Source: Zootoca vivipara
Taxonomy: Eukaryota
NCBI RefSeq assembly: GCF_963506605.1
Contig: NC_083286.1
Location: 44,020,001 to 44,084,000 of the forward strand
Direction of reading: 5' to 3'
DNA: 64,000 nt
Both the position numbers and the translations under genes were made by a program. Below, piece after piece: positions 20,234 to 53,285 of this stretch. Below the pieces are notes generated by a model. The model was not told where the DNA came from. It saw only the letters and a list, made by a program, of their open reading frames with translations, and did no database searches. Position 1 is the stretch's first letter; each line of letters starts with the position of its first letter.

Positions 20234-20384
20234 GAATCATAGAATTGTAGAGTTGGAAGGCACCCTGAGGATAATCTAGTCCAGCCCCCTGCAATGCAGG
20301 AATAAGCAGCTGTCCATTATTGGGAACGAACCTGCAACCTTGGTGTTATCAGCCCCATTCTCTAACCAGCTGAGCTATCCAGGC
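20234..20384 (-). mobile_element. tRNA-Ile-headed SINE with CR1 tail
   Basis: Reverse complement ggatagctcagctggttagag...ctGATaacaccaaggttgcaggttcg followed by ttcctgcattgcagggggctggactaga...ttctatgattc. Confidence 0.85.
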
Positions 20385-21707
20385 TATGTGAATTTTTCCT
20401 GGATATTTTCCAATCTATGATAGGGCATTCTATTTGTAGTCCCTAGAGATCTTTGCCTGGAATCCATTTTATTGTCCTTTTTTATTTTCCTGAGATTTTG
20501 AGGGGCAATTTTATTCATGCGGATTTTTATTTATTTATTTATCACTGCCTGTATAGTTTTTGTGGCTTTTACCTTTTTTTTACTTATTTATTTACATACT
20601 ATCTGTTTTATTCTATTTTTTTTATTTAAAAAAAACTGCCATAGGAATATGCTTGAAGAGCGGTATCAAATACTTAGAATAAACATTCCCTACCTTGTTT
20701 TCTTGCCCCCCAATTTTTGCTTCCTGTGAAATGGCTGAATTAAGCAACAACATTTACATCTTTACATTTTTAGAACTCCCAATGTAGTTTTCCTTTAAAG
20801 AAGACTAGCAGGTGGATTCTATATTTGCGCTGCAGAGTAATTTTGTAGATCATCCTGTAATCAGAACACCGTGGCTTAGTGCTCAGATGTGCATAGATAT
20901 GCTATGTTTCCATTCAGAAAGGTGTTTGAAATGATTGCTAAGCATCTCTGCACTTTCTAGCGGCATTACCATTATGCTATTTACACTGTGACTGGGGACC
21001 CTTTTTCTACCGGGGGGGGGGGGGCACATTCCTTTCCAGGCAACCTTGTAAGGGCCACATGTTAGTAGTGAGCAGGGCCAGAGTCAAATGTGAGTGGAGC
21101 AACAAATGTAAATTTGCCTGTGTATAGTAGACTAGTTTCTACGCGTCCCTCTCTGTCCTCCAACTGGGCAAGAAAGAGGCATTATCGGAATTCAAGGATG
21201 CAATCCAAGCTGGTGAAAAACATTTAGGGTGTAAAGCAGTGAAGGGTGTAGCCTGGAGAGAGTTTTAAGGGGGGACTAGAGGGCTGCATTTGGCCCCCAG
21301 ACCTGAGATTCCCCAAAGAGCATCTGTGCTATGTGTAATTATTGCAGAATTTCTTAAGGATTTGCTCTGATATATATAAATGATGCAAAGTGGATATTGG
21401 GCCAAGGTATCCTGTAGCCTATAATTTGAAGGGGGGGAGAGACGTGTATGGCACCCAGCTCAGGAGGGGATGGGAAACTACTTGGAAACAGTGGAGCAAT
21501 GGTGTGCATCACCCATGGAAACACCCGCAAAGTCCACCATGCTGTCCACAGGCAGAAGTAACCAGTGAACTCGGGTCAACAAGGAGACAAACAACTGAAT
21601 CAACATACGCACGCAGCACACACAATGATTTCAGAAAATTGCCTTTCCATGAGTCCCAGTAGCACAGGCAGCCATGACCCCACTAATCTCCAGTCATCTC
21701 TGCAGGC

Positions 21708-21895
21708 AAGGGTACAGCAATTGCTCAGTGGTAGAGCACCTGCATTGCATTGCATTTTAATTCCTGGCATCTTGCAAGCACGGCTGGGAATGCCCCCTGC
21801 CTGAAACCCTGGTGAGCCACTGCCAGCCAGAGTAGATAATACTGAACTAGACGGACAAAGAGTCTGACTTGGTGTAAGGCAATTTCCTATGTCCC
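21708..21895 (+). mobile_element. tRNA-derived SINE (Squam2-like), decayed
   Basis: gctcagtggtagagcacctgc head and cctgaaaccctgg...ctgccagccagagtagataatactgaactag body; relatives at ~42600-42760 (+) and ~58770-59250 (-). Confidence 0.65.
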
Positions 21896-22069
21896 AAAGG
21901 TCCACCTCCACTTAGTTGCTCATAACTAGAGTAAAACACGCCAAGGAAAGGGAGTACCCCCTGCACAGCACCCATGCAGGACCAGATAGAGGACAGGTAC
22001 ACAGCCCTCCCTGAGAAAGTAGTTCAGGACCCACAGTCAGGACTTACAACAGTCAGGACTTAAAACAAG

Positions 22070-22535
22070 GTGAATGGCTACATTTAAACTGGAAAGAGAA
22101 GTTGCTGGAAAGAGAAGTTGCTGAATTGCAACTCATTACCAAGCTTAAAACCATGGAGAGACCTGGTCTGAATAAGGACACTGGATTCTTATCTCATTAT
22201 GCATGATCAAGCTTTCTTTAGCACATCAGCCCTTGCTTTTTCCTGCAAGACCAATTGCAGTCGTTAACAGTCGTTAACAGTCATCAACAGGTTTACTACT
22301 CCTATCAGCCAATCAATCACGCATTCCCACCACCCTTCTGAGTAATACCCCTCCCCACCCTCTGACTATACATAGGGTCTGGTGGCTTCTGTTTCAGTGT
22401 ATCTGAAGAAGTGTGCATGCACACGGAAGCTCATACCTATGACAAACTTGGTTGGTCTCTAAGGTGCTACTGGAAGGGGTTTTTTTTTGTTTGTTTTTTA
22501 CTGCATCAGAGCAACACGGCTATCTACCTGTAACT
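22070..22535 (+). mobile_element. Penelope-like element 3' end (GIY-YIG C-terminus plus pLTR)
   Basis: Translates to LEREVAELQLITKLKTMERPGLNKDTGFLSHY once a 16-bp tandem duplication is removed; terminal ggtctctaaggtgctactgg motif. Confidence 0.85.
22399..22436 (+). ncRNA. Minimal type-I hammerhead ribozyme motif (PLE-type), variant core
   Basis: gtat-CTGAAGA-a-gtgtgcatgcacac-GGAA-gc-TC-atac: stem I gtat/atac, palindromic stem II, AGCT stem III; GAAA box reads GGAA. Confidence 0.75.
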
Positions 22536-24131
22536 AGTACATTTAAAACGTAAAGCAGATAGGATCACAGCATGCATAAAAATACCAAGGCTTGTGTTTA
22601 ACATGCTTCCATCTTGGCCAATTTCAAAACACACACACACACACACACACAAAACCAATTTGAGAATATAAGATTGCCCCTGTGTTCCTCTGATCCACTG
22701 GCTTGAGCATCGATGTTCACATTCAGCATCTTACTGCTGTGAATTCCTGGGGCATGGAAATGTAAATTTCCATAAAGACTGTTTCTGCACAGGAGGTGCT
22801 TTATACTTGGTGGTTTCCACATTGTACACTGAGTATTTCTGCAAAATGTGTTGTTTGCTGTGGAAAGTATGCATCAGCCGAGAGATGCCCCCCCTCCCCC
22901 CCGCCAACACACAGTTTTCTTGTAAACAGCTTCCATTGCCTTGGAGGTTCCATTTGCACTTCTTGGAGAGAGAACATGCCGTGGAATAGCTAGTCAGGTT
23001 TATATCACTTCACTCCTTCAACTGTCTGTCTCCAAGACTTGTTACTATATAAAACTTAGGAATCATCTGTTTTTATTTTCTTATCAGATCACCACTGTTA
23101 CCAAGTCAAAACTTGGCTTGGCCATAATCTTTCAGCAGTAGTCTGTTGTATAATGTCTCGGTTACTAACGACGTTCTATTTTCAATATTTTAATTAACAA
23201 AAGAGGACAAGGAAAGAGAAGCAAGCTAACTTTCTAACAAGTCACAGAGACATTCCGAGAGAAGGATTTTAATTCCACGAGGGGGAAAAATTCTGCAGAT
23301 TTCAGGGACTTCATTTTCTTAATTTCCTAAAGAGAAGAATTCTAGACTGAGGCCATGCATGTTACCATTTGTGCTAAATCCAGAGCACTCCCACTACTGT
23401 TTCTTTTAAAGCTGTGAACACACGTTAGCCACCATCCATAACTATTCTGTACTTTCTTGAGAAATACTACTGCCGAACCAGCTTCAGTTCAAAGGAAAAC
23501 CCAATATTCCTTAAAATGTTGCTTTGCTAATGAATATTGCAAATCCTTCTGTGAGAAAAGAATGAGGCGGCAGGGTCCAGAGCAAAAAACAAAATTCAAA
23601 GCATTTGTGCTCAAAATATCACTGGAAACAGCCAATAATTTATTTTCCCTTTTGCTGCAAAGCAGAAGCATCTGCTTTGGGGCAATAATTCTGCAAACCC
23701 GCACCACCAGGCTGTGACAGCTGGAACTAGCCTGCCGTAACAAGAGAAGGAAAGCCCCATTTAAGCAATAACCTTCAAGCTTCAAAATTTCTGAATCAAT
23801 TTATATCTGAATGCGGGTGTATGGATGAGTGATGATAAGCCTTGCCTAAGGGAGGAAGCTGCTGTGTGGCAACAGAGCTGATTTGCTTGACGAGAGAATC
23901 TCCCAGGAATAACTTCATCAAAACTTGAAAACACCATTAAACAACAGGTGGTTACCTGGGATGGTGGCTGCCTTGTAGTTTTGAGGGTGGCAAATGCACA
24001 TTTCTACCTGTGATGATGAATCAATCATCCATCCTCAAACTAGAAAGAGTGCATGCCTTGCCATCTGTCCTGGTTAAAAAAAAAGGTATCAGAGGGTGAG
24101 ACTGTGGATTAAAGAGCAATTTAAGAACAGC

Positions 24132-24532
24132 ATCAGAGGTCACCAAACATTTTAGGCCAGTGGACACATTTGGGGTTTTAAGAAGGTGTTGTGGGCACCA
24201 GTCCCAAATGCCTGCCTACCTGCCTCTCTCTCTCTCTCAGAAAATGGTTGCTGTGGGGTGTCACAATGCTTTCCACATGAAATAGGACTTACAAAATGGT
24301 ACAGGAATATCCTATCCACTCCCCGGGCAGCCCATCTGTTCAGAACAGCTGAGTGGCCAGGCTTGGCATCCAATGAAATGGGAGCATGTTTAGGGAATGC
24401 AGGAAGAGCAAGCCATCTCTTCCGTATTGTGGATTTTTGAGGACGGAGCATTTACACAGAGCTTTCACGGGCAGCATATCAGGTAGTGGCGGTCACATGG
24501 GCACCTGCTGGCACCACATTAGTGACCCTTAA
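24132..24532. mobile_element. Decayed hAT-type MITE
   Basis: cagaggtcaccaaac ... ggcaccacattagtgaccctt termini. Confidence 0.55.
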
Positions 24533-24751
24533 TCTATGTGAAAGATGTGCATTGCCTTTGGAGATGAAAGACAGGGCCAAAGAGGTGCTTTTCAGCCATT
24601 CCGGTCCTCCTGCCCTCCACTTCCTCTCCTGTCTCCCCTGTTTAACCATGTCCCTTTGCATGGTGGGATGGGAAAGGGCACTTACTTTAGTCCATTGCAC
24701 AAGGTGCCATACATATCATGCACCAATGTTTATGCTGAATACTGAAGGGGG

Positions 24752-24752
<1 letters not shown>

Positions 24753-24798
<46 letters not shown>
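24753..24798. repeat. (AAT)n microsatellite
   Basis: Direct reading. Confidence 0.95.
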
Positions 24799-24800
<2 letters not shown>

Positions 24801-25724
24801 TGATGTCCTGAGCTGCCTTGTTTCCTTGCAAGGAGGGTTGGAGGAAGCCCACTTCCCTGAACTTAGAAACCTAGCATGCCAGGAAGAATCGTTCTGTTTA
24901 TTCTTCTCAGTGACATACCCAGTGACTTTTTTTCAAACAGGACAATTTTGTTCCAGGAAAAGCATTCACACATGCCTGCCTGCAGCCTTGAAGTGGCACA
25001 GTATAAGAAAATGATGGTGTCGCTTTAGTTGATTGTACACTGCTTATTGGAAAAAGAATGTACTGTACATGTATTTTCAATAGAACAAGTCAGTTACAAC
25101 TGAATCGTACTGCTTGCTCTGCTAGTCGTTGAAATCTTCTGCATGCCTTTTCAGAAGTAAGCTCCATTGAGTTAGTGGATATTGGATTGCAGCTTAGCTT
25201 CATCCTGGTCATCTTTTGCTGTGTGGGACCTCTGTGTGGGAGGGAGTATTCCTTGACTAAGCAGCATAGAAAAGACCCTTAAACACAGGAGATGCACTGT
25301 ATTTAAACACTGATTACTAAGGAAGACCTATAAATTAAGGCTTAGAGTTGGTAGACTAATTGCAAATAATCAGCGACTGGTGCTTTTTACAAACGTGAAG
25401 ATTTCCTGACATCCTCAAGCTTTATTACATAATCAATCCTTGGATAAACAGCTTTCGTATTTGCCACAATTACTGTCTTTAATAGTTTATTTCCCCCCTC
25501 AAATTAATGTTATTCTATTTATATCAGTTAAAATGGATTACTACTAAGCTGAAGCCAGTGATAAACTCGATGTCAAATGAGAAATTAAATGCCCCCTTTC
25601 CAAGGTAGATGGCATGCTTCCTCCAGCATAGCCCTGTTTTAAAAGTCGACGTGGAAATAAAAGATTTACAGTTTGAATTACGTGTTTCTAAAAACCATCT
25701 GGTTTGGACCAAAGTGTACAGGGG

Positions 25725-25725
<1 letters not shown>

Positions 25726-25769
<44 letters not shown>
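25726..25769. repeat. (TG)n microsatellite
   Basis: Direct reading. Confidence 0.95.
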
Positions 25770-25771
<2 letters not shown>

Positions 25772-26237
25772 CACCTGAATCATAGAAAACCCACACTTAC
25801 CTAAACCTCAGTCCATACATCCTTTGCACACCATGGTGGAAATCCATGCATGATCTCTGACTGAGTAAATAACAAGAAGGTCAGATCCTATCCTGTGCTT
25901 CAGCAGTCGGAGGCATGGGGGGCTCTGGGTTACTGCGTTTAGACTCTACACACAGCGTTTAGACTCTGCGTTTAGACTCTTTTGCAGCCAATTCCCTGTT
26001 TAGAGGAGGAAGATGGAAGGGCTGGGGAGTCAGTTCACCCCTCCCTCTTTAGCCATGTAATCAGCACTGTCAGAGGTTTGCAATTACTTATTGCCAGCCT
26101 TCCCCATCCTGGTGCCCTCCAGATGTTTTTGAGTGCAGCTTCCATCATCCCCAGCCGGCATGGGAAATGGTGAGGGAGGATGGAAATTGTAGTTGTCAAC
26201 ATCCAAAGAGCATCAGGTTTGGGGAGGCTGGCTAATG

Positions 26238-26368
26238 TGGAGCTCAGTTGGTAGAGCTCCGCATTGGGGTTCAAGCCCCAGGTTGGGCAAAAGATTCCTG
26301 CATTGCAGGGGGTTGGACTAAATGACTCTTGTGGTCCCTTCCAGCTCTACAGTCCTATCATTCTATGA
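26238..26368 (+). mobile_element. tRNA-Lys-headed CR1-tail SINE with the anticodon arm deleted
   Basis: agctcagttggtagagc...ggttcaagccccaggttgggc followed by ttcctgcattgcagggggttggacta...ttctatga. Confidence 0.8.
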
Positions 26369-26400
26369 AGGGTAAAGCTATATTTCTAGTTTTCAAAATA

Positions 26401-26572
26401 CAGTCATACCTCGGTTTAAGTATGCTTTGGTTTGAGTACTTTCAGTTTAAGTACTCCATGGACCCGTCTAGAACGGATTAATCCACTTTCCATTACTTTC
26501 AATGGGAAAGTTCGCTTCAGGTTAAGTCCAGACTTCCAGAACCAATTGTGTACTTAAACTGAGGTACCACTG
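26401..26572. mobile_element. Tc1/mariner (Tigger-like) MITE
   Basis: TIRs cagtcatacctcggtttaagta / tacttaaactgaggtaccactg flanked by TA TSD. Confidence 0.85.
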
Positions 26573-26864
26573 TATTACCTTTTTTAAAAAAAATAATACA
26601 TTGATCCCAAGGCCTTGAATGTCTTCTTTTCTTTCCCTTTCACCCAGTGAGCTTAAGAATACAATATTGGTAAGGAAATCCAATGTGAAACAGTTTTCTA
26701 TGCAATTGTATCGATATCTGATATTCTCGAAGGCATTATTGTGACGATGTACAGATAATGAATATCCCTTTTAACATTTCTGCGTTATGTATTACAAGGA
26801 TGCTCCTTCAAGATAAGTTATCTTCTTCTGACATAGGCTCAGATTCCTTTGTTGCCCTAGCTGA

Positions 26865-27176
<312 letters not shown>

Positions 27177-28501
27177 TAAATCTTGGGGGGAAAGAGTTTT
27201 CACAGAATCTGTTCAGACAATAAAAAGAGAGAGAAATGATAGATAATTGCCTGGTTCACGTGTAACACTAATCCATGGTCTGTTGACCAAACCATGAGCT
27301 AACCACAAGTAGACCGTGGTTTATTTCTCCAAAGTTTGGCTTATTTTCTAGCTGCTGTCACCTCCCATGTTTGTAGCTTGGGGAACTGCTGAGGTGAAAT
27401 AGCCAAACAAACTATGGTTAAGAAAATTTGCAGCAAGCCATAGTTAAAACAAACTAAGGTTCATAAGCCAATGACAAATCATGGCTTCAGATCATGGCTT
27501 GTTGACAGAAAACAAAATATAGTTAAACCAGTGGGTATGGTTTCGATGATCAAACAGCCGTAGCTGAATAAACCATGGCTAAAAGTTATGTGCAAACCAA
27601 GAAGATAAAGCGACTGAGAATATTCTGGGGCAGGAAGAATAATACTGTCTGTGAGAATTTCTTTGTGTTGATAATCAAGTATTGTACATTACAAATGATT
27701 ATTAAACCCACGCTGTGACACTTAAGAAGAAGTTCTTGAACTTCATGTGCAGCTTCCTACTGAAACTCCCTGTGTGATTTGATCCTGTTGTCCTGTCATA
27801 TACCACTGTGTGACAAACAGCGTATTGTCTGCGGGGTGGGGATTGAGGCAACAGTGTATAAGTATCAGGAAAATGTCATTTCCTTCCTTAAGAATGTCAC
27901 ACTCTGTAGATTAGAAGGAGCAAAACAGCCACCAACAATTATACCTGCAATTTATTTTGCTTCGGTGCCAGGTATACAGTAGAAAATACTTATAAACAGA
28001 GGGAATAAATGTGGGCAAAACACCAGCTTTAAAGAATAAAGTGCATAATGCATTGCAAGGAGATTCTGCAGGGTGGGGATTGAGGCAACAGATATTGTTC
28101 GATCAACAAGGCTGCAGGAAATTCAATGAGGGGATGAGCTGAAAATAGGAAGGTAATATAAAACTTTCTGTTAACAAAAGGCTCCGTTGATCTAAATGGG
28201 GAGGGAACAGAAGAACCTAAAGCAGTAGGCATTTTGATCAGCAGTAGATGAAACCTGATCATAGTATCTTCATTGGGAGAGGGATGAAGTAATGAGGGTT
28301 TGTAAAGACAGAGGGTTGATGTAGAATTGTCAATGGCAGGTAGTTGAGTTGGATGTTGGCATTCCAAGTAAATATCTGAAAAAAGGAGAAGATGCTAGAG
28401 CTGAATCAAGCTTGGAGACCAGTTTCATGCTTTGTTATATTACATTTAGACTGCTGCATTGTTCTCCACAGAGCCCGCCACCCCGTGAAGAGTGTCTAGA
28501 T

Positions 28502-28720
28502 CCATGGTTCCCAACGTGGGGCACACGCCCCACAGGGGGGGGGCAATTCGATTTTTAAGAGGGGAAATTTGATAATGAGTTAGATCAAGTTAATGACCTT
28601 TTAGGCTTCCTCCTAAAAGGAGTTCACTTTTTGAATAATAAGAATTATATGTCATGGGGGGAATCAGGATTTTAGAGATGCTTAGGTGGGGCATGGCCAA
28701 AAAAAGGTTGGGCACCACTG
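28502..28720. mobile_element. hAT (Charlie-like) MITE
   Basis: Ends ccatggttcccaac / gttgggcaccactg; TSD gtctagat / gtttagat. Confidence 0.8.
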
Positions 28721-31654
28721 GTTTAGATGCTTCATTTGGTACAAAATGCAGCTGCCAGACTGCTAGGCAGCCTCAGGATTATATTCCTCCAATATTGAAA
28801 GATTGTGCTAGTTGCCAATGTTTCCCAGACTCCGTTTGAGATGTTAGTTTAGGATACTGCTACTGTAAGACATCCTCTTGATGGTGTGCATGAGAGGACG
28901 TCCTCCTGTGTGCCTCACAGATTGTGGAATATCCTCCCTTCAGAGCTATCTTTGGTCCCCGCCCTCTCTGTTTTAGAAAAGTTAACAAGACACGTTCTTA
29001 TTGGGCCTTTTAAATGTTTTTAGTGGTGTTGCTGTTTGAAACGTTTTCTATTGCTTGCAATGTTTATATTATGTTTTTTGTTTTTGATTTGATACTTTTC
29101 AGAAATGTGATTTTTCTATAAACTATAGTACACATGATTTTTGGCTTGAGAAAATCATGGATTTTAGAATGCTAGTATTGGGTGATTCTTTAAATTTTAA
29201 TACTCACCAGCTGTTACTTAAAAGATTACAACTTGACAATATAGATATGAGTTCATAGTGTAGTGGAAGAGAAAATGTAAATTTGTAGAAACATTTATTT
29301 AGAGTAAACTGTATTAAATACTGGCTTTCCCGTCTTTGTATGGAAGCTGAATTAATACCCATATGTTCAAACTCAGGTAGCATTTAACAATTGCATTTTT
29401 TTTTTGTACAAGAGCAAGTAAACCATTAAATTAGATTTTTCGTTGACCCGTTTCACTCACATAAACAAAGGAAACACTGAATTAAATGGTTATTTATTTT
29501 TCTTTGTTGTGAATAAGTATTCCCCCTCCACCCCAGAATTTTGAAAATCCTGTAATATTTAGATTTCCACAAGTCAACCCTTGGTGGCCACTTGTTGATG
29601 GAAGCTCATCATATATAAATTAAAACAAATGGCAATCATTAGGCAATTAAGATTTATGTTTGAAATCACCCCTATGCTTTTTGAAGGTCTTTGAGTGCCA
29701 GGAGTTCGTATTAGGTTTCTCGTACATTCTCTCTGCAATATCTGGCACTGAGAAATGGAAGACTCTTGCTATTAAGATCTGATAGGGCAGACTACCTCTA
29801 CCATGCCCATAGATTGCAAATCCAGAATTACATAATGCAAACTCTGCCTGCAGAAGATGTCCTTTTATTTGTGTGTATTTTGGCTGGGTTATCTTAAGAC
29901 ATTATCTATTTCAAGTCTCTTGGGCTCTACCGTTCAGATAGAAAAACTAAATATTAAAAGTTTAAATGATAGACAGAAGCCATCACCTGTTTCTTTGGCT
30001 CTAGTACTACTCTTTTTGTTTCACCCTGTGTCCCTTGCGGGGCTGAAAACTGAATGCACTGAATGATGCTGAATGAGTATCATGCAAGCCTCTGATAAGG
30101 ATTATTCTCTTTTGCTTGCAAAGAGGATAAATGGCTGTTTCAAAGACTATGTTTCTTCGCTTCCTGTTCTGTCACCACATTTCTGCATGTTAAAAATAGG
30201 CTTATTTTCCTGTAAACATTTATTTGACTAAAGGAGGATATAAAATCATCAGGCGAATTATCAGTATTTCTATGATAAAAGGGTGCTGGGATTCTTTTAT
30301 AGCTGGATCCATTTTTCTTGGTCTTGAAATCCAGATAATTTCAAAACGTACTAAGGAAGAGCGCTGCTGTTATTTTTCTGGTCTTGTTTCTGTCATTATT
30401 TTTTAGCGTTTGTATTTCATGCCGCATAATAGATTTCGACTTTGACAGATACTTGAGCAAAACTGATAGTAATAATCACTTTGGTGCCACCTGCTTTAGG
30501 GAAATAATCCATCAGATCCATTTAGTATTCAACTTATGTAGGCTAGCTTGCATGATGCAAATGTTAGAATTGCTGAACAGCTGCAACCAACAAAAATCCA
30601 CCTACCCAAGATTTTGATGGCTGTTTTCGGGACCCTTTGGTAGCAGGTGGCCCTAACAGAGGTCTTCTCTTCCCAACCTCCGATATTTCAGTGATTTAAA
30701 ATCATTGAACAGTCTGCTTGAACTTTTCGAAATTAGATGGTTTCAAATAGTTTGCAGAATGGACAAAAAGGCTGGAAGCTGTTCGGAATTGGCAGGAGAC
30801 GAAAGCAGATTAAAGGACAATGGCTGACAACTCAAATGGCCGCTGGACTAGAGCATGCTGAACAAAGGCGTTGTGGGCCACAGAAACATGCCTGTACACA
30901 CACACACACAACATGCAGAGTGCTCAGCCCTTTTCCACCAACATTCCTCCATACCGTCTCCCTTCCCCTAGTTTTTCAGATTCTTTTCATAGTCAGCTCT
31001 GAACAGCCAGAATTCTTGGCAGACTCATGATAGCCTTAGTTCATTGGAATGAGCAAGTGACTTCTGCTATGCTTGTGGTATTCTTGTAGAAGATCATTGG
31101 TTCTTTTTTCATCCCAAATATTCCCTGTATATTTGTTGCAATTCTCCAAATAACACTCCCAAAATATGGTACATTTAATACAAATAAAATACACATGCCA
31201 TGTATAAATACAGTTTGTTTTTCTCCTGGATTCCACTGGCTCTGGAGATGACAAATGACACAATCCTTTTCCCCCACCCCATTTCCTTTGTCATGGGAAT
31301 TTACCTGTAAAATGTCCTTTCAGCTTGAGTTATGCAGCTTGAGTCTCACAGTATTGCACAGGAAAATGCGCAGTAAACTCATTGCGAAGACAGCAGATTT
31401 TTCATAGCAAAATTAAATCAGTTTTGTGGGAAAGATGTTAGATGGGGAATCTAACTTTGCAGGCATCTTTTTGTGTCTGTGCTCGAACCTGTGGTGCCTT
31501 TTACTGAGATATTCCTAATGAAAGAAGCCCAAGGTTGCAATCCTGCCAATCTATGTGTGCACAGCCTGTTCTAGTACACATTACAAACGTTTAAAAACCA
31601 TGTTTCAGACTGCTGAGATTGGAGATGTTTGTGACAAGGATGGCCTATCATCTC

Positions 31655-31798
31655 AACCTGATAGCTCAGTTGGTAGAGCATGAGACTCATAATCTTAGGG
31701 TTGTGTGTTCGAACCCCACATTGGGGGAAAGAGTCCTGCATTGCAAGGGGTTGGACTAGATGACTCTTCTGGTCCCTTCAGCTCTATAATTCTATGAT
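31655..31798 (+). mobile_element. tRNA-Lys(CTT)-headed SINE with CR1 tail
   Basis: atagctcagttggtagagcatgagactcataatcttagggttgtgtgttcgaaccccacattggg aligns to tRNA-Lys-CTT; same CR1 tail. Confidence 0.88.
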
Positions 31799-31929
31799 GT
31801 TGGCCCAAGAAAAAGTCAGGGGAGAGCAATACAAAGTGAATAAGAGTTTAGAACCAATTTTCCGCTCTTATAGGGGGGGGAGCAATTGGGGGTATATCTT
31901 TGGTCATTTATCTATAATGGAAAGTTTAT

Positions 31930-33297: not shown

Positions 33298-33303
<6 letters not shown>

Positions 33304-33350
<47 letters not shown>
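33304..33350. repeat. (TG)n microsatellite
   Basis: Direct reading. Confidence 0.95.
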
Positions 33351-33354
<4 letters not shown>

Positions 33355-35582
33355 ACACAGTGAGCAAAGTAACATGACCCATTTCTGGAGGTCATGTCCC
33401 ATTGACGTCATTAGGAAGAGTGAATCAGATGTTTGATGTTGTCTGGACCAAACCTTATGCTAATTCTGAGACACTTGCATGAGATGTTGTAAAATAATAA
33501 CAGTTATTGGTGGGATTTGCCCATTGATGTGTAATGGACAAAATCTGGGTGACCGTAAAACACCCAGAAACAAAGGAAGCCCTAAAGTCTTTCCGCCAGT
33601 GGGAAGTTTGACCATTGAGCCACATGACAATGTCAGTGGGAAGCAATCTGTTACTTAAGTACGGCTGCATAATACTTTATAATTAACATGAAATGCAAGG
33701 AGAGAATACAAGGAAGGTGAGAAAGTGAAAGGCAAATGAGTTTGTTGTGTCAGCTTAGTTATGATAAATTACCTGAGGCAGTTTCCCTTATGCAAAAGCC
33801 CTACTGTAAGGAGAGTGTCTCATTAATAAGTAGGAGAAAGTGACAAGATGAGTTATAGTGGAGCAATCCACACTTAATATGGTACACACGTGTGATTATA
33901 AAGAATGCTATCAAATATCCCTAGAAGAGAAAAAGTTGCTTTAAAGACATATACTATCTTAAACCAACTCTTGAAAGCATGTAGGACGAATATTCATAAC
34001 GGAAAATACATCTGTGACTGTATACAAAGACTCACTCATTGCCAATAGTATCTTCCATTAAAGCAGGAGCCTTAGGTAGGCTTAGAATCAAATCACGGTG
34101 ACTAATTTCTTCTAACATAGCAGGATCCATATAGGAGGTGATTGGAGTGAGTTATAGTTGTACAGAATGGAAAACAGGTAAAATGGGCGAAGGCTGCAGC
34201 AAGAAAGTGCTGTCAACAAATCAGCCGCAATAATCTAGCTAGCACCAATCACACAAAATGCCTTCTCATGCTAGTGGTCTGTTTCCATTAGCAGTGTGAT
34301 GTCGGAGCAACTTAATTCACACTAGATTGCCCTTTCTTTTCCACGTACCAGAAAATCACAAGTCTCAATTTTCCAGTTCACAGAAGAAGAGCTGAGATCT
34401 ATTGTGAGTTAGTCACCGTAGTGTTTACAGTATTCCCACAAGGTGGCAATCATTTGTAAGAGTGAGCTTGAAGTAGAATATCTGAAGTCACTCGTTTTAC
34501 AAGTCTGCCATTCCCTATGTTGGTTTGGGGGCTGAGCGATGTCTGATTCTCAACGTCATGATAAGCCAGCTAAATGTCCTGGGCAACAGCTACTACTAAA
34601 ACTGACACATTTTTACTTTACTTTTAACTCATCATTACAACTGTTATTTCATAGTACAAAGCCACAAGGGCTGCAGGAATCACGATGACCCGCTTCGCAT
34701 CCCCGTCCCCTGTCCCCCGTCCCCCATTTTTACTTGGCACAAGGACACATCATGATTCACGATATATCGTCAGGTTGAATATTGTGAAGCCATTACCACA
34801 ATGTGGACTTCAAACCAATTTTTGTTTATGTATATTGATGCATTGTCCTCTAGCATTGCTAGGTGATGTTAGTCTGCAATGCTAGAGGACAAAGCTTAGA
34901 AACACAGGAACCTACTTCATACCTAATCTTTCCAATGGTCCATGTAGCTCAGTGTCTCCACACAAAACGGCAATAGTCTTCTGAAAAGGTTCCCAGCCCT
35001 ACCTGGAGATTTGGGGGATTGGAGCTCAGACATTGTTAAGATTTTAATATAAGTGGGTTTAGATCCGAGGCCATTGCTTTGCATAGCTCTGTATTTAAAG
35101 AACATAGAGAGTCACATTTAAATGGCATAACTATACCATTTGGCCAATAACAGTCCTCCTCCAATCAGTTCTTCATATAAAATGATTTTACTGATTCAGC
35201 CTAAGAAATAGCTGAAATTATAGTACATGCCACTCTGGGTGAAATAATGTGAGTAATCAAAACCATTTCATGGTGTGGCTGGGGCATGATCAATGTCAAG
35301 AAACCTCAGTATGATTTTAAAAGTTTGGGTTTTTTAGTCATTTGGGTTTAATGGGTGTTCTCTTTCAGTGCTATTTAGATACAGTTATTTAGCTTGTGCC
35401 TTGGGATTCTTAATTGTACCATCTGTTGAACAGTAAGGAAAATAAGAAGGTTGCTTGTATTTATTTACCTTGGTGATTGCTAGTAGTAGTAGTAGTAGCA
35501 AAAGCTTTCCCCCCCTCAAAAGTTTTTGAGCTATTTTAAAAGAATGTTTTTAGAAATTTCACCAAAAAACCAAAACTTCTAA

Positions 35583-39393: not shown

Positions 39394-39489
39394 TCATGCA
39401 CACACTCACAATGGAACTTCCACCCCTCTCCTCTCCCCCCAGAACAGATTTAGGGAGGACTGCAAGGTAGGAGGGGGGTGGGTTCCATT

Positions 39490-42811: not shown

Positions 42812-42953
42812 CATAGAGTTGGAAGGAACCCCGAGGCTCATCTAGCCCAACCCCATTCAATGCAGGAGTCCTACCTGCAGTTGTCCCTGGGTGGCCTCGA
42901 ACCACCAACCTTCTGGTTAACAGCCAGGCACATGGACCCATTGAGCCACAGGT
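42812..42953 (-). mobile_element. tRNA-Asn-headed SINE with CR1 tail
   Basis: Reverse complement gtggctcaatggg...ggctGTTaaccagaaggttggtggttcgaggccacccagggac aligns to tRNA-Asn-GTT, followed by cctgcattgaatggggttgggctagatga...ttccaactctatg. Confidence 0.85.
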
Positions 42954-43504
42954 CTCACAGAAGATACGTTTGCTTGAAGAACACATTATCCATCACTGCC
43001 AGTGTTCTCCTGTAGTGGTTTCAGCTGGTGGAAAAGACAACATGTGTTCCAGGTCATTTCTAGACTTCTAGTTAGGCCCAGCAGTTGTGGCTGGGATCCC
43101 ATGTGAACTGTGTGGCTGCTCTAAAACATGAACATGACTCATGTGAAGAGTGCTGGCACTCAATGGCCAATATTCAAATGGCCATGGGTCCAATGCAGGA
43201 GGCCATTGTTTCCCCCATGGGAAAAAGTTCAAAAGCCAGGCTATATAGAAAGAAGTTTTTGACCACACGGTGCGCTAACAAAAAGTCTTTCCTGATTTAT
43301 CCCCTCAAAACTTTGTGCAGTGTCAAAGCGAGGGAGAAACCACGGTTCTTATTATCCTTTCACTCCCTCTGCTAATAGCCACACATTAGCCTTTTTCTTT
43401 TATGATGTTAGTAATTCACTCATTATGGCTTTACCCCATTATTTTTTAAAAGCCTATTGCATTAATATACTCTTTTTTCCCCTTTACATTTCCTCTTTTT
43501 CTAG

Positions 43505-43762
<258 letters not shown>

Positions 43763-45329
43763 TGAAGTTTTTCTGAATGTGGCTTGGGTTGGGAGAACTT
43801 TGCTAGCTTGTCTCCAATTAGACCTAACAGGCAAACTAAAAAGTTATTGCAATGATATGTTTGTTTAAAATATGGTTTACTGTTCCTGTTTTGCTTCTAA
43901 ACAACTCAGTTATGGAATTTCAATTATTATGTAATGCATTGCTAAAAATCACCCTTCTTAAGAAGAGGATTGAAAAACCACCAACCTGGGAAAATTCAGC
44001 AAACTTATCTTCCCAGTTCCTCCACTCCACCCTAGTACCCAGGAAAACAATATTAAGACCAGATTTCTTTTTTAAAAAATAGGCCAGGTTCACAAATCAC
44101 TTTACAAGCTTAACGGTGGTTTAAAAGTGAACATACAGTGTGCTAGTGCAGAGGGAGAGAAAAAAATCTTAGCTGCTTTGCTCTTTGCTATGTGCTGCGC
44201 TACTGGGAACTAAGCCATGGTTTGGCTCAGCGTTACATCCACATTATGGTTTATCTCTCTGCAAACAAACCACAAGCTGTTTTTTCTTGGCCTACTACTT
44301 GTGGTTTGTTTGATAGAGACAAACCATGAACCTGAGTTTGGACAGAGTGTTAAGCCAAATCATGGCTTAGCTCCCAGTAGTGCTGCAGCAACAGGAGCGG
44401 AAGGAAAGTGAAGCAGCTATTCTTTCCTCCCTGTACATTTGCCTTTAAGCTACAGTTAAGCACAGCTGTGGTGGTTATAAGTGATGTATTAAAGAGGCTG
44501 GGGAATCTCAGCCCTTGCTGAAGAAGAATCAGCATAGCTTCTCTAAAAGAAAGTCTCACCTTACTGTAGCAGGGTTGGTCAATAGACTCTGAAGTCACAA
44601 AGTACTGAGAACCAAGTGGAACTGGGTCATCTCAACTTATCCAGCAAATAATGCACTTTGCAGCTTCGACAAGCTCAATATTTTTGCATTTTATCCAACT
44701 AATGGTGACTGCAGCATAAATTCCTTCTTTGTTTATAAGCATGAATTTGCTATTAGCATTATCAAAATGTCATGCTCATTAATTGTTAAGCTCTGATATA
44801 GAATGGCAAATGCTAAAACTTCCATGCCTGATAATGCTTAATGTCGACATTTTTTAACCTTTCCAAACTACGCTTTCCATGTACTGGATAACAAATTGCA
44901 TTTCTCTTGCACACGAGGCGCAACAATTCACATTCCCCCCCCCCAAGTTGAACCTAGGTAAAAAATATACGAGTGAGCTAACAAAAACACATGAAAATGC
45001 TTTACTCAAGAGGTGAACTTCTGAAAATATGAGCAGGAGAACTGAAATGATTATGCTGCACTAACTACAGTAGGTCATTGCTGTTCCTGTTGTAATTGCA
45101 TTGTGATTTCAGTTGTTCTAAAAAAATTCACTGCATAAAAACTTTCAACAGCAATCATTTGATGACAATGCATAATTATCTGATGGGAGATTTTAATTAT
45201 GTTTGTGGAAACTTGACAAAGCCGACTGTAGGAGCACGCTATGAACAGGCATGGCATTGATCAATTTACTTAAGAACAGGATCACAGAGAAGCTGATCTC
45301 CAATTAAGCCCTAGTTCTCACAAATAGCA

Positions 45330-45967
45330 GGTGAGGAGTGTGGTATCCACCTCTTACGCCCCCGAGGCCCCATTGCCATCTGAGGGAAGGGTGTTCCTGG
45401 CCAACACAGAGGCTCTGCTCAACCTAGTCTCCCGCTTTAAAGAACAGCTCCCACCAAACAAGGCTGTTCTTTATCAATCAGCCTGGGGTCCCCCTAAAGC
45501 TTCTTTAGTGTGGTATTATAGTATTAAGAGTTTGGGTGGGTAGGCTGTATGCCTGGGCCCCCCTTCTAATTCCTAAAATAGCAAGGCTAGCTTCCTGGTG
45601 GTGTAATAGCCTAGGTAATGGGCCATTAAAGGAACAAAGGAGGAGGTTTGGTGCCAGAGGACAAATGAGTGGGTCCCTCTCCCTCTCCTGGCTGGTAGTT
45701 AGAGAGACAAAGGCCTGAGTTGAGAATTCGTTGTTTTGAGCTAGAAGTAGGAAGAAAAGCTACATCCTGGGAAGTTTGAGAGTCAGAGAGATGCTTGATC
45801 TCAGAATCCAAGGCTGCAGCTATGCAGGAAAGAAACGCCCTCTCAGGTTGTTAATGCTGTGATCCCCCCCATCTTGGCTCAGGTTGTATATATGGGTAAA
45901 TAAACCATATATCACAAAGACACCACAGTCTCTGCTGGTTAACCACCTGAAACCTTGAAATCTCACA
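45330..45967 (+). mobile_element. Possible decayed solo LTR
   Basis: gtgag...ctcaca ends; gtaaataaac poly(A)-like signal at ~45896; no TSD found. Confidence 0.4.
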
Positions 45968-48579
45968 CCTCAACTCTCAGAAGCATTTTTCTCTCAAGGA
46001 GCACCCTTGCCTATCTCCCAGGCTTACCAAGATTTTCCTTCTCATGTTGAGTTCCACCTTGAACTGCCTGCTTTCCCGGTTATCCACCTGTTTATATAGA
46101 TTCCCTTTGTCAGTTTCCTACTGACAGCCACCTCCCAGCCACCCTGGGGAATGCCTGCGTTCACGTCAGCTTGTAGAGCCATGCTATATGAAATGTAATG
46201 GCCCATATTTGTCTTAGCTCTCTTTGCTGCTCTTCATAAAACAGAATGTAGCGCTTTGCAGAACTACACGAGTAAGCGGAATAAACGGTTGAGTCTGGAT
46301 CCAGGCTTTCCTAGCCATTGACGGAATGATTATCGTTGAAAACAATTAGATAGGTCCAGGTGCTAAGCAGGCATATCGAAAACACAGGTGACTTTGCTTT
46401 AAAAAAAGTCTGTCCTGTAGAATTGCTGGCATCCATCTGTCTTGGGAGACGATGGAGGAGTGCGTCTTTGCGGCTGAGGTCAAGCTATTGGAAGGTTGCA
46501 ACACCTGCTGTGGCTTTAGAGACTGATGCAGGACAGACATGTTTTGTTGCAGCTGGGGCAGAGGAAGGCGTCCAGTTGTGCTGCTGCAGATGCACTGTGG
46601 CATTTCTTCTCTCTGCGTTCCTCCCAGCAGCCATTTCTCCTCTGGTCAGTGCTATGGATACATGACTTGGCTGTCTGTCTCCAGGCACTTCAGTTGTCTG
46701 CAGTGGATTCCCACATGGCACGGTTGACAATTACTACGAACTTCTTCGAAAACAGGTCCTGCTGTTGGGCTTTCCATAGGCATCTGATTGGCCACTTTAA
46801 GAACAGGATGCTGCTATTAAGAACTTTAAGAAGTGGCTATTGGCCACTTTAAGAACTAGATGAGCTATTAGCAAGATCCAGAGGCTGTTCTTGTGCTCTT
46901 AACTGTTGAAAACAATAGAGCAAATGGTCTTCTCCAAATTAAACTTGTATGCATCCAAATATACACTTGCTGAATCCCATTAACATCTATTTTATAACTT
47001 CTGAAATGTTTATTGGTTACAGATGCAACTCATAGAAATAGGCTTCTCTTCTGGGTGGCCATACATTAAGTATTTCCTCATCATTTTTTTTTTAAATGAA
47101 AAAGTTCGCGTAGACCCCCAAAACCAGTTGCCTTCAGTTATCTTTGAAATCATTGGGACTTGAACTGACTTTAGAATAGTTTGTTTAAAACTGTTTAAAT
47201 ACTGCATTTTACATCACTGTGACCTGCCCTGGAATTTTTGGGTGAAGGGTGGGGGTAATAATATTTCATCCTACAAACGTTGGCACAAACGTCTCCCTAA
47301 ATTAAAAATTTCTATGTGCCATCAATGATGTTTAACAGAATGGGGATGAAAAAAAAAATCTGTTTTCTATTCCAAAATGAGGAAAACTGCACAATATGTT
47401 GGAGAAAAAAAAAAAAGGATGTTTGAGACACCCAGGTTATTATTTGAGCCCAGGAACAACCGTGTTGGTCATGCTGACAAGTTGGAAGCAGTTGAATGAA
47501 CTGCGGGTGGCTCAGTACCAGCAGATGTGTGGAGCCAAACATTGACTGAAAATGCCATACCAAGAATTGCAGCTAAATAAATGCTAATGCTAATGAAAGG
47601 ATTGATGGACAAAAATAAATAAATTAAAATCTAGGCATGAATCTGCAAAAGTAGATTTTTATTTCATACATTCCCTTCTGGGCTGGCAATGTTGGGAGCA
47701 GATGTGAATGTTCCCTTTGACACACAGAGAAAGACCAATCTCCATCTTTTGTGCCACCAAGAGGCATTCAAAGGATTCATTCCAGCCAGGCAAAAGATGG
47801 GCGTGAAGTGAAGCCCATGGGGGATGTAGTCCGGGCAGGATGTGAAGTCTTGGGAGATTACTTGAGGGCCATGGCTGGTCCTGAAATTCCTCACTCCCTT
47901 CCAAAAGAAGAAACCCAAACGCAGATGTGATTAGCAGTGGCACATTTAGCATCATGCACAGCTAATCCCATAGGTTTGTGTGTGTTGTTGTTTTTAATTA
48001 AGGGGGAAAGCCTAGGAGGAGGAGGAGGAAGCAACTGAGTTTTGAGGGACATGAAAAATAACACTGGGACAATAAGAGACTAGTGCCCCGTTGCTGAGTG
48101 ATAAGATTTCCAGACTCATGAATGCTAGGATAAAAAATGCCAGGGACTCTCTCCGGCGATGTGCCTTATTGTTAAACCGTCTGGAGAATAGCATTCCACT
48201 AGCTGACCTTGCTCACAGGGGTTTCTAGGGCATCATTACTTGCTTCTTGCAGATAATAACAAGTAATGCAGTGGGATGGCATCGGTCAGAGAAGTGTTCT
48301 TTGCAGTTCCTTAAAGCAGCTCCAAGTTCGTGTAAAAAAATATATGAAAAGAAAGTCTTGGCACTTTGAATATGATGAAAGATATTTGCGCCTGACTATT
48401 ACCCAGGCTATAATTGGTTCCATTAGTTTGTTTCATGGGGGTGAAGAAGAAACTTCAAAGCTGTGCAGGGAATCGTGTTTGCCACTGATCCTATGGATAG
48501 TAAGATAGTTATTTCATAGTACACAACACTACAGTATAATCCATTAAATTATAGCCAATTTATAGCAACAGAAAATTTA

Positions 48580-49145
48580 TTTATTTCCTCATTTCTATAT
48601 GGCTCTCCATAACAAAATCTCAGAGTGGCTTACAAAAATATATAAAATAACATTCGAAATACAGAAAACGGAAACCTACAGCAGGAAGAAAATACTCCTT
48701 ACAGACTGTTGACCAAATCAAGCTGTTCCTATAGCTTGAGTGAAAGGGTGTCTCTTAAGCAGCCTATAGACCCGACATGAGGAAGAAGCCCAATGCACCT
48801 TCAGAATCAGGGAGTTCCATAAAGAGGGTGCTACGTCTGAGAAGGTGCTACGCTGGGTCCCCACCCCCTGCACACTTCTCAGGTGCGCGATTATAAGGAG
48901 GGCCTCCTCCATAGATCCTTTCTGCCAGGCTGACACATATTAAGAGAGGCACTCAGTTGGGTCCTTGGATCCCAAACCATTTAGGGCTGTGTAAGACCAA
49001 ATAAGTATCTTAAAGTAGACTCCATAGCAAGTAGGCACCCAGATCATGGGAAATAACTCACTCAGTAACTGAGCAGAGTCATTCTGCACCAGCTGCAGCC
49101 TCCAAACCATCTTCAAGGGAAATGGGTTGAGGGCTGGATGCACCT
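48580..49145 (-). mobile_element. Old L2 fragment
   Basis: Minus frames RLQLVQN..AQLL and TFSDVAPSLWNSL are L2 ORF2 C-terminal motifs. Confidence 0.7.
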
Positions 49146-49299
49146 TGAGTCTGAGATCCAGCAGAGTTCTGTTTTCTAAGCAGTACTTGGATTCTCTGCA
49201 TGTCCAAGTAATAGAAAAATGATCAAAATCCAGTCTGCCTTATCAGCAGTTAGATGTGACTACAGAAGGTTAAATTGGTCAATTTTGGTTTCTCAATTT

Positions 49300-49435
49300 C
49301 AGGCATCCCCAAACTTTGGCCCTCCAGATGTTTTGGACTATAATTCCCATCTTCCCCGACCACTGGTCCTGTTAGCTAGGGATCATGGGAGTTGTAGGCC
49401 AAAACATCTGGAGGTCCGCAGTTTGGGGATGCCTG
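49300..49435. mobile_element. hAT MITE (caggcatcccc family) nested in an older repeat (~49265-49818)
   Basis: Perfect TIRs; perfect TSD ctcaattt. Confidence 0.93.
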
Positions 49436-50496
49436 CTCAATTTTATAACCTTCAGTTCTCCACATTTCCAAGTCAGCTGTGATTTTTTTTTGAAGTCCTC
49501 ATGAGAAGTCATCAGAATTTTAGTGTAGTGTAGCTTTATCTTTTAAATGTATGCATGCCATTTTGCCAAAACTGCACATTTTTTGCAAAGCAGTTCCCCC
49601 AGAAATAATGCATTTATGTATTTAATTTTCAATTGTATATGCGTGTTTATGAGCGCTTTACCCCAATGTATGCATTTATGTACTCATTACTTGGCTGGAG
49701 AATTACACTGCAGAATTCAAATAAGAAAGGATTTCAAAAGATGGCTGTGTTTCATTCCCGCTTTGTTTTGGAAAGTGCAAATCAAATGCGAACTGAATCA
49801 AATTTCTCCCCATCCTTGAGAAGTGACACACTAGAAGTTGGATGGTATTATTTCTGCATCACCATGACAAAGCCTTAATACATAGCATTGTAGGGGAGAC
49901 CTATTCTGAACACCTTACATTGGATACTTCAGCATCTCTCATTGCATGCCATTGCATGCTCCATTGTAGCTCTGCAGATCAGATCAGATCAGCCCCAGAA
50001 AATTATAGCCTGGTTGCTTTTTCAAGGTAGGAGACAGCTGCAGTTCTACAATGCAAGTTGCGACAGAGCTATAGCAGCACAGCAAACCCAACTTGTGAGA
50101 AAGAGGTTAATACCCTTTCTGAGCCATTATTTAAAGTTCAGAGCTGGCCTATTTTTAGATCGTAGTGTGAGAAGACGTTGGCTGAAAATAGATACAGATC
50201 ACGTCTCCTTGTAGAATATAGAACATTGGGACACTTCATTTTCAGAGAACATAATTGGTATTTGGGATATAACCTCCCTGCTTTCAACCTTTCGTGCACT
50301 GTAAAAGGAGATTTGTTATAAAAACCTCTCATCTTATGTGAGTATTCCTAAGAACACAGAGCACAGCAAAGGGTGGGGCGGGGGGGGGGCTTTAGTTAAG
50401 ATTCGGTTTTGCTAGCCCATTTTGGGTGTGGCTAAGGTCAAGTTGTCCCCAAGTTTCCTTTGTCTTGGTATTGTTTTGGCAGAACTAACGTTTAGC

Positions 50497-50737
50497 CATA
50501 CCTGCCAAGTCCCTGCCTGAGAAATAAGGGACTGGACCGGAAGTAGCAGACCGGAAGTAGCGCTGTCGCCATTTTGGAACTGGACAGAGCATGCTCAGAA
50601 GCGACTTTTGATGCTGCTCTGCCCTGTTCCAAAATGGCCGCCGCGTCAGAATAAACCGGGGAAAAACAAAAATTTTGGCTGGGAACAGCTGGAAAAACAG
50701 GGGTTTCCTGGGGAATACGGGAGACTTGGCAGCTATG
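50497..50737. mobile_element. 241-bp hAT MITE, longer relative of the catagctgccaag family
   Basis: catacctgccaagt / acttggcagctatg ends; approximate TSD gtttagc / atttagc; CpG retained. Confidence 0.85.
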
Positions 50738-51396
50738 ATTTAGCTCTGAAGCAGTACACTCTGTAGCAGCAGAATATGTTATCCATTGCAAAAGTAGAAA
50801 AATGAAAAATGCACAATCCCCCACCGTTGTCTTCTCCAATGCCCTGTGGTAGTCCCATCATGCTCAGAAGTTCTTACTTAATGGTGATTTCACTTATTCA
50901 TGTATTGGATGCCAGCTGTACCCAGCAAGAGCAACTCTCCCAGTTGCTCATATATTTTATTCATTGATTGACAAGAGGATTTCTAGGTTGTCGCCCATTA
51001 CACGATCCTAGGGCAGATTGTGCGGCAATAAAAGGGCAACAACAACAAAGAGACCAGTATGAAACCAGATTCAGCACAGCTTTATAAAAGCAATTTAAAA
51101 AACAAACAAACAAACAGCATCATTAAAAATACCCAGGAAGCACAACCTGGGCTTCTGATCTGCAGCAGCAAAATAATTCCTAATGTTTTTTTAAAAAAAA
51201 AAAGAAAGAAAAGCCTGGCCAAATGAGGGATTTGTCACCTAGTGTTGAAATGACCAAAGTCTTGGCACTACCGTAGTTGTGCCTCAAGGGCAGGGCTACA
51301 CAACCTTTCTCAGACCAAGAGCTGAACTTTTTTTCTTGACAATGTTCCAGGGGCTGCATCCCAGCAGCAGGCAAGGCCAAATGCAAAAGTGGGTGT

Positions 51397-51740
51397 GAAA
51401 TTGATTGAATTTATATACCGCCCTATAACTGCAGGTCTCAGGGTGGTTCGCAGAACAAAATCAAAACATAAAACTGCAAAATACATAATCAAAATAAATA
51501 CAGCACAATGACCCCCCCAAAAAACCCTCACATTTTTAAAGGGTATAGGATGTCAATCAAATCAACCAGAGGCCTGATTAAAAAGCAACGTTTTTGCCTG
51601 GTGCCAAAAAGTGTATAATGAAGGTGCCAGGCAAACGTCCTTGGGGAGAGCATTGCACAGACGGGGAGCCACTGCAGAGAAGGCCTGTTCTCGTGTTGCC
51701 ACCCTCCGGACCTCTCGAGGACGAGGCCCACGAAGGAGGG
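51397..51740 (-). mobile_element. L2-like LINE 3' end
   Basis: Minus frame QAFSAVAPRLCNALP; tail accctgagacctgc...agggcggtatataaattcaat. Confidence 0.75.
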
Positions 51741-53017
51741 TTTTACACAGTTCAACTTTACACAGCTGGTTAGTTTCTACCTGGACTCCCCCCCCCATCC
51801 TCCTTCAAGGCAAGAAAAGGGCACTATCAGCATCACAGAATTAGAAGTGTTCATGGACACATCCCAGCCAGACAAAAACTGGGTGTGTGAATCAGGGCTA
51901 GTGACAGATGTGGCTGGGGAGAAGGGAGAGGCTAGAGAGAAAGTGGGGCATTGGGAGAACACTGAGGACCAGAGAGAGAAGCTTGGAGGGCCACCTTTGC
52001 CCCCTAGGCCTGATGTTCCCCGCATCTACTGTAAGGGAAGGCTTTTCCATAGTCAGGGTGACACTATGCACATGAGGAAGGCTGACCCAAAAGCTTTTAG
52101 AGGATTCAGAGTGTGTCACCTGACTTACACTGGCCTGCTTTCTTGCCATTCCTTCCTTTGGCCAGAACTGGACAGTCCTGCCAGGAATTTCCAGATTTCC
52201 AGGTCAAGACTCCCTGTGTGTTGATACTGCTCTAGTGAACACATTTTAACAATTTGATTGGTGAAGGAAATAATACCAGAATGGACTTCCACTGTGCACA
52301 GAAGAGCTCAGGATGGCAGCCTCAATCATTTTGTAAAACTCTATTAGAACACAGTGTTTATCTGTCTAGCTCCAAAGTGTTACGTGCACTGTGCCTTGAC
52401 ACTTACAACATTTTTTGCATTGCCCCCTTGGGCAGTAAGTTCGCAAGGTTTGACATCATTCCACCTTGGCTGACACTAGGAGACCTGGTGTCCCCCCTTC
52501 CACAGCCAGGTGGTGGCACTTTCTCATTCTGGCGGATATGCCAGCATCCGAGTCACTGGCTTGAAGAGATTAGACCTCGTGTCCGGCACCCGGAGACCGC
52601 TCAGGCACTATAAAAATCAACTTCGGTGGAATCGCAGAGGTGGTGATTAACATGCAGGCGTGTTTCAAAATAATTTGAACCACTTCTTGGCGAAGGGAGA
52701 GGAGTCTTATTTCTTACAGAAATGATCTTCGGTTCATAATTAATTTATAAGGTAGGTGAGATAAACGTAATTGAAATGTTCTTCACCACAAGAGACATGT
52801 CAGGCTGTAATAGGCCCGTAAATTAGCCAGTCTTGGCTTTGAGTCATTTGAATGTTCTTTTTAAGATTCCCTGGCCACATGAGTTACTTAAGGAGATAGA
52901 GCCAGGCCGCATTGCCTCTTAAGCAAACTTCCAGGGCCACACACCAGTGGTGGTGGTGGTGGTGGGGAAACAAAGGCCAAAGTGAGCAGATCCATGGTTC
53001 TGAATTGGTTCAGACTG

Positions 53018-53153
53018 CAGGCTTCCTCAAATTCAGCCCTCCAGATGTTTTTGGCCTACAACTCCCATGATCCCTAGCTAGCAGAACCAGTGATCAGGGA
53101 TGATGGGAATTGTAGTCTCAAAACATCTGGAGGGCCAAATTTGAGGAAGCCTG
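53018..53153. mobile_element. hAT MITE (caggcttcctcaaa variant) interrupting a SINE head
   Basis: TIRs caggcttcctcaaatt / aatttgaggaagcctg; no clean TSD. Confidence 0.85.
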
Positions 53154-53285
53154 GGTTAGAGTGTGGTGCTGAAAATGCCAAGGTTGCAAGTTGCCCCTGT
53201 ATGGGACAGCTGCATAGTCCTGCATTGCAGGGGGTTGGACTAGAATATCAGGGTCCCTTCCAACTCTACAATTCTATGATTCTAT
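53154..53285 (+). mobile_element. tRNA-Ile-headed CR1-tail SINE (second copy)
   Basis: ggttagagtgtggtgctgaaaatgccaaggttgcaagtt followed by cctgcattgcagggggttggactaga...ttctatgattcta. Confidence 0.82.

Follow-up and report, generated by a model that had tools for sequence, protein, structure and literature searches.

CR1-tailed SINEs in the window

The window analysed here, a 64,000-nucleotide stretch of the Zootoca vivipara genome (G000:C11:44020001-44084000, in an assembly of 1.44 Gb and 48 contigs), carries five short interspersed elements (SINEs) in which a tRNA-type head is joined to the 3' end of a CR1 long interspersed element (LINE), together with one CR1 copy bearing the same end (Table 1). 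The five are copies of three dispersed SINE families, headed by tRNA-Lys, tRNA-Ile and tRNA-Asn, and a fourth family, with a 5S-type head on the same tail, was found outside the window. A first-pass annotation of the stretch had described five elements with one tail and several tRNA heads, and all of them, as well as the CR1 end, were located where it had put them. A 22-nt tail motif, with up to three mismatches allowed, has four matches in the window and none in 100 shuffles, a hidden Markov model of the tail recovers six of six sites, and each copy aligns to its family consensus.

Table 1. Elements of the window that carry or adjoin the shared CR1 tail (MITE, miniature inverted-repeat transposable element; ORF2, second open reading frame; UTR, untranslated region)
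Positions	Strand	Feature	Support
15413..15580	-	3' piece of CR1 LINE (CR1a): ORF2 end, stop, 3' UTR shared with the SINEs	157/166 to CR1a consensus
15589..15679	.	91-bp MITE within CR1, 8-bp direct repeat on either side	sequence; gap between two CR1 BLAST pieces
15680..15827	-	5' piece of the same CR1 copy	80-85% to longer CR1a copies L287, L091
20234..20385	-	full-length tRNA-Ile-headed CR1 SINE	141/152 to family consensus
26238..26367 (aligned 26241-26363)	+	tRNA-Lys-headed CR1 SINE, 15-nt deletion of anticodon arm	111/123 to Lys consensus
31655..31798 (aligned 31660-31798)	+	full-length tRNA-Lys(CTT)-headed CR1 SINE	127/139 to consensus
42812..42952 (aligned 42814-42952)	-	tRNA-Asn(GTT)-headed CR1 SINE	123/139 to consensus
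53018..53153	.	136-bp inverted-repeat MITE adjoining the truncated Ile head	terminal inverted repeats seen in sequence; weak hairpin match
53154..53282	+	tRNA-Ile-headed CR1 SINE without its first 18 nt	116/129 to consensus positions 19-152

Three tRNA-headed families

Each window head used as a query gave 40 scored matches out of 2,010-3,813 first-look candidates, and in every case 39 of them were other copies: dispersed and near full length at 87-90% identity for the Ile element at 20234, dispersed at 84-88% for the Lys element at 31655, and at 82-90% for the Asn element at 42812. That the elements form no families, each being an isolated tRNA-CR1 chimera that arose by retrocopying or by chance juxtaposition, is refuted by these copies and by linkers of fixed, family-specific length, and the family consensuses also differ from their source genes at fixed sites; it can be dismissed as practically impossible, and the amplification expected in the first-pass annotation is real.

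The source of each head was sought among genuine tRNA genes of the same genome, a decayed Lys-type copy miscalled as Asn having been left out of the comparison. The Lys consensus head matches the Lys-CTT gene at 66/73 positions (57/73 for Lys-TTT), the Ile head the Ile-AAT gene at 63/76 (next isotype, 56/74), and the Asn head the Asn-GTT gene at 64/74 (next isotype, 51/75). At 83-90% identity to their own genes these are heads of RNA polymerase III (Pol III) type with an internal promoter, and since the three consensuses have only 44-56 of 74-76 positions in common with one another they do not collapse into one. The anticodon is CTT in 26 of 34 scored Lys copies and GAT in 29 of 36 scored Ile copies, although the Ile source gene reads AAT; a search for an Ile-GAT source gene with a 33-nt motif returned six AAT genes and one rearranged GAT fragment. 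An Ile-GAT tRNA-like fragment with intact CpGs at locus L407, and likewise a Cys tRNA copy at L205, lie at most ~15 nt before another element, in both cases presumably a Sauria SINE.

Individual copies are more worn than their families. Lys-CTT heads had been assigned to both window copies of the Lys family, which holds for the family and not for the copies themselves: the anticodon at 31655 has mutated to CAT, so that ARAGORN calls the head Met (Rfam tRNA score 39.6 bits), and the one at 26238 is gone with the deletion, its Lys identity resting on linker and tail, with head scores of 62 for Lys, 28 for Ile and 20 for Asn. The Asn copy at 42812 scores 30.3 bits against the Rfam tRNA model. One hairpin MITE family has four copies in the window (3250-3333, 5153-5237, 49326-49409 and 53044-53127), with sub-threshold Rfam microRNA matches.

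No family has a central body, and ~7-15 nt join head to CR1 3' UTR. The body-less architecture had thus been read correctly, and the linker estimate of ~10-15 nt needs correction for one family, the length being fixed at 7 nt in Lys, 10 nt in Ile and 15 nt in Asn. None of the heads ends in CCA, and TTTT is absent from all SINE consensuses. Among the first 100 of 1,958 matches to a B box plus tail, sorted by eye, 29 were Ile, 15 Lys, 6 Asn and 50 a transposon-borne Lys fragment, with no new tRNA head, though rare heads could be missed in such a sample. The last group belongs with a young, dispersed element of ~2.6 kb, probably a non-autonomous DNA transposon (L341:4009-6609, L342, L343 and L344, on G000:C1), whose copies are 94-96% alike with similar G-rich ends and contain three ~520-bp tandem units, in each of which lies a Lys SINE's 3' half. 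The tRNA genes of the genome include a large cluster at G000:C13:44.0-44.6 Mb.

A fourth family with a 5S head

Clustering of 99 weak or unassigned regions upstream of the tail yielded a single new group, headed by a 5S-type sequence. Aligned to the 5S gene of the same genome, its head matches 41/56 positions over a segment, 41-97, that takes in the A and C boxes (score 67; the highest of 500 shuffles reached 47), and one copy reaches 26.6 bits with the Rfam 5S model, below the gathering threshold. As a query the group drew 1,013 candidates, 40 of them scored as matches, and all 30 fetched loci, three of them internally damaged, run on into the same CR1 tail, a count biased toward tailed copies by the 10 junction bases that the query carried. 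The family is 161 nt long and body-less, lacks the first 40 nt of 5S, and begins with 35 nt of non-5S sequence that matches tRNAs only weakly; a tRNA origin for this 5' part was dropped, as these weak matches were all that spoke for it. At G000:C5:7.43-7.47 Mb lies an array of 5S rDNA, whose units of ~2 kb contain two genes each.

The CR1 tail

The window's CR1 copy is a 5'-truncated element of ~310 nt, in two pieces split by the 91-bp MITE. Its 3' piece reads ...PSLEVFKQRLNGHLSWTL-stop directly ahead of the shared tail, with the stop codon 7 nt before the CCTGC at which the tail starts, so that the SINE tail amounts to nearly the whole CR1 3' UTR. In the SINEs, heads are fused a few nt after the position of the ORF2 stop to ~70 nt of tail with an ATTCTRTG end, and the tail columns match CR1a in the alignment. 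The CR1 label rests on this end, which is typical of amniote CR1 according to the portion consulted of PMC5729268, on reverse transcriptase motifs upstream in longer copies, and on a weak RVT_1 match (E 1e-4, below the Pfam cut-off). Consensus SINE tails have the same predicted hairpins as CR1a.

Three side observations concern this region. A much younger subfamily with a variant tail, CR1b (L146, L184, L216 and others), is 2% diverged and has ~12,600 ends; no SINE head was found on the CR1b tail among 29 CR1b copies. At L093:122 and L099:934, CR1 ORF2 is joined directly to the tail at GAGATT, an internal deletion that ends at the SINE-junction point. In the CR1/SINE tail, a single position that follows GGACTAGA (or a variant form) is occupied by related ~140-bp MITEs at no fewer than seven loci (at least L134, L135, L144, L172, L321, L360 and L371), which suggests a target preference.

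Copy number and age

Abundance was estimated from 80 evenly spaced 10-kb stretches, 800 kb in all, in which 61 tail matches comprise 25 SINE copies (11 Lys, 12 Ile, 1 Asn and 1 5S), 13 CR1a, 7 CR1b, one transposon-borne fragment and 15 unassigned. Scaled to the genome, this corresponds to ~20,000 Lys and ~22,000 Ile copies and a few thousand each of Asn and 5S, the last two figures each resting on one sampled copy (46-10,000), and to ~45,000 copies for the four families together (95% interval 29,000-66,000). The window holds five SINE copies against 2.0 expected. For CR1a ends the expectation is 1.04 per 64 kb, so that its single end is ordinary: the window's CR1, which had been put forward as the donor of the tail, is an ordinary truncated copy, and a special donor role for it is rejected.

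Non-CpG divergence, measured on copies not picked by query, is 7.9% for Ile (n=18), 10.7% for Lys (26), 11.2% for Asn (6) and 12.3% for 5S (4), alongside 12.7% for CR1a (38) and 2.0% for CR1b (29). Three related organisms have contigs, 4-10% different from the window, that extend from unique flanking sequence into the elements at 20234 and 31655 without spanning them, reaching at 31655 ~90 nt in from the left flank; both insertions therefore predate those splits. The four families look inactive at present.

Separate captures, head swapping or a DNA-level origin

How one CR1 end came to carry four heads can be accounted for in several ways, of which we lean somewhat towards a separate origin of each family, in which CR1 reverse transcriptase switched from copying CR1 RNA to a Pol III transcript. 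As CCA is missing from the end of every head, the templates at birth would have been precursor RNAs of tRNA or 5S, and the jump may have been guided by 4-7 nt that the two sequences had in common. The resulting master copy would be transcribed by Pol III from its internal promoter, as SINE-LINE biology would lead one to expect (PMC3747384, in the sections drawn on here), and the CR1 ORF2 protein would bind the tail hairpin and insert the RNA by target-primed reverse transcription.

The principal rival is a serial head swap of the kind proposed for the avian PittSINE, in which one SINE existed first and later heads were acquired through template switching or gene conversion. The published test for such a history asks for diagnostic tail bases common to the SINEs and absent from the LINE, as set out in the part consulted of PMC5729268; across the four families there is no tail base that the SINEs have in common and that separates them from CR1, and by this measure head swapping is not supported. 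What the tails do have is private: T35 in Lys (74%), and T29 (83%) plus a fixed CA at a CpG site in Ile, with the Asn and 5S tails identical to CR1a. Head and linker keep their own pairing in 174 of 175 scorable copies, with just one borderline mosaic. The junctions also differ, in overlap with CR1a (TGAGATT in 5S, AGATT in Lys, GATT in Asn) and in how much CR1 sequence is kept upstream of the tail. Private bases, constant pairing and differing junctions thus favour separate captures of the CR1 end, which fit the sequences better than head swapping does. The interchangeable heads of the first-pass annotation are not upheld by these results; its broader idea, that one CR1 lineage created SINEs repeatedly, fits the data and gains strength from the 5S head.

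Several observations nevertheless weigh against separate captures. The tail is only ~70 nt long and, with Asn and 5S tails equal to CR1a, would not show whether one SINE had descended from another. The Ile consensus ends in GGGACAGCTG, with the GGGAC-R-GCTG of the Asn family (GGGACRGCTG), unlike its own genes, which end in GGGCCA; and the Ile and Lys heads both start with GGATAG, unlike their own genes and as in Lys-TTT genes, with A at position -1 of the A box in 95% of Ile and 92% of Lys copies, again as in Lys-TTT genes. Linkers resemble their own pre-tRNA trailers no better than non-cognate trailers (51 genes). In 147 near-full-length copies, 8-12% diverged, target-site duplications are no more frequent than in 200 permutations. 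The folds of single-copy tails do not exceed shuffled sequence in stability (z -1.56 to +0.24). Finally, the same structure would be expected had a CR1 stub integrated downstream of a tRNA gene.

The shared ends make Ile the best candidate for a swap, as a head built on the 3' end of the Asn family with a Lys-type 5' start, and head swapping draws further support from Ile being the least diverged family (7.9% against 10.7-12.3%) and from the precedent in birds, as far as the portion consulted of PMC5729268 describes it. These hints amount to 2-3 bases, however; GCTG is present in CR1 too, and the trailer of one Ile gene (L410) begins GCTGTG. Taken with the tail bases and the near absence of mosaics, we judge a serial head swap rather unlikely.

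A DNA-level origin, in which a very short 5'-truncated CR1 came to lie just downstream of a tRNA gene, or within a 5S copy, and the master SINE arose by Pol III read-through without an RNA template switch, is in our estimate unlikely as well, if anything slightly more so. The missing CCA agrees with it, as do tail-only CR1 stubs truncated near this point, common among the unassigned sample matches, which by eye are mostly stubs or MITE-split halves, and the 5-7 nt in which the beginning of the CR1 UTR matches certain trailers of Lys, Ile and Asn genes. The trailer matches lack significance, however, because these isotypes make up 20 of the 51 genes; a CR1 tail precedes the terminator in none of the 51 tRNA genes examined; and four insertions would have had to strike a few kb of target within a 1.44-Gb genome.

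Relation to known SINEs

Several described systems share parts of this architecture, as far as the portions consulted of the cited sources go. Different tRNA heads on one CR1 tail have been published for birds (PMC5729268), with further lineage-specific tRNA SINEs in PMC8044555. TguSINE1 (tRNA-Ile) and PittSINE (tRNA-Asp) of passerines have, as here, a tRNA head, a CR1 3' end with a hairpin and the ATTCTRTG repeat, and template switching was proposed for their different heads on one tail; however, they are two families with four shared diagnostic tail bases, indicating descent from one SINE, whereas here there are four families, no shared bases and one 5S head (PMC5729268). The tortoise Pol III/SINE resembles the Lys family in joining a tRNA-Lys head to a CR1 (PsCR1) tail in a reptile, but belongs to the turtle lineage and is tabulated as a single family, the likeness being one of description and not of sequence (PMC3747384). 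In a lepidosaur, the tuatara, tuaCR1-SINE1a/b are CR1-mobilised and overlap ~6,900 non-coding-RNA-like elements; they too are likened by description only, and one tuatara supplement showed no match to the present families (PMC7116210). For the 5S family the counterpart is SINE3 and AmnSINE1, in which a 5S promoter head is joined to a CR1-clade tail; such heads, paired with CR1-type partners, are reported from fish and amniotes, but SINE3 and AmnSINE1 are listed as DeuSINEs that have a central domain, and this family is short, body-less and limited to its internal 5S segment (PMC3747384). No such lizard family appears in the portions consulted of PMC3531059, PMC10670947, PMC4316615, PMC9498476, PMC13700897, PMC5381603, PMC8665684 and PMC11303007. 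In the literature searched as a whole, no lizard tRNA-CR1 or 5S-CR1 family was found, and some supplements outside the comparison may bear on this.

A separate SINE of ~190 nt with a tRNA-Ala head, a body and an unrelated tail occurs 12 times in the 800-kb sample and in the window at 59094-59249 (-) and 21723-21870 (+), with weaker traces near 4325-4468 and 34990-35034. It is likely Squam2, which we take to be a tRNA-Ala SINE. The families abundant in lacertids, Squam1/Sauria, Squam2 and Squam3, are tRNA-derived, ~190-350 nt long and provided with a body in the parts consulted of PMC7983390, PMC10702118 and PMC13295347. The first-pass annotation had not recognised the present elements as any of these. 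For two of them this is firm, identity being ruled out by length, body and LINE partner: Squam1/Sauria has a long body, a Bov-B-derived end and an ACCTTT tail, and Squam3, at 218-239 nt, a CORE domain fragment, an L2 end and a TAAA/CTT tail, as against 147-161 nt and a CR1 end here. The families are probably not Squam2 either, which is set apart by its description (~190 nt with a body) and not by sequence.

Whether the four families are undescribed is about an even call, on a comparison made without Dfam and Repbase. The wider picture, to which we would give slightly less than even credence, is that four minimal, uncatalogued SINE families radiated in lizards of lacertid type, where both classes of internal Pol III promoter, three tRNAs and the 5S control region, recruited a single CR1 3' UTR, and where the Ile family may have come from Asn through a true head swap. 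On a practical level, the families would inflate tRNA gene counts, ARAGORN calling many copies Lys, Asn, Met or Ile genes, and tail-based repeat annotation would miscount them as CR1; as presence/absence markers they would number in the tens of thousands. SINE origins are usually inferred from single cases. If the picture is true, the four-family radiation would be a natural replicate series for SINE birth: four body-less families of one age band share a LINE tail within a single genome, and template switch, insertion behind a gene and head swap could be compared directly across relatives as routes of birth.

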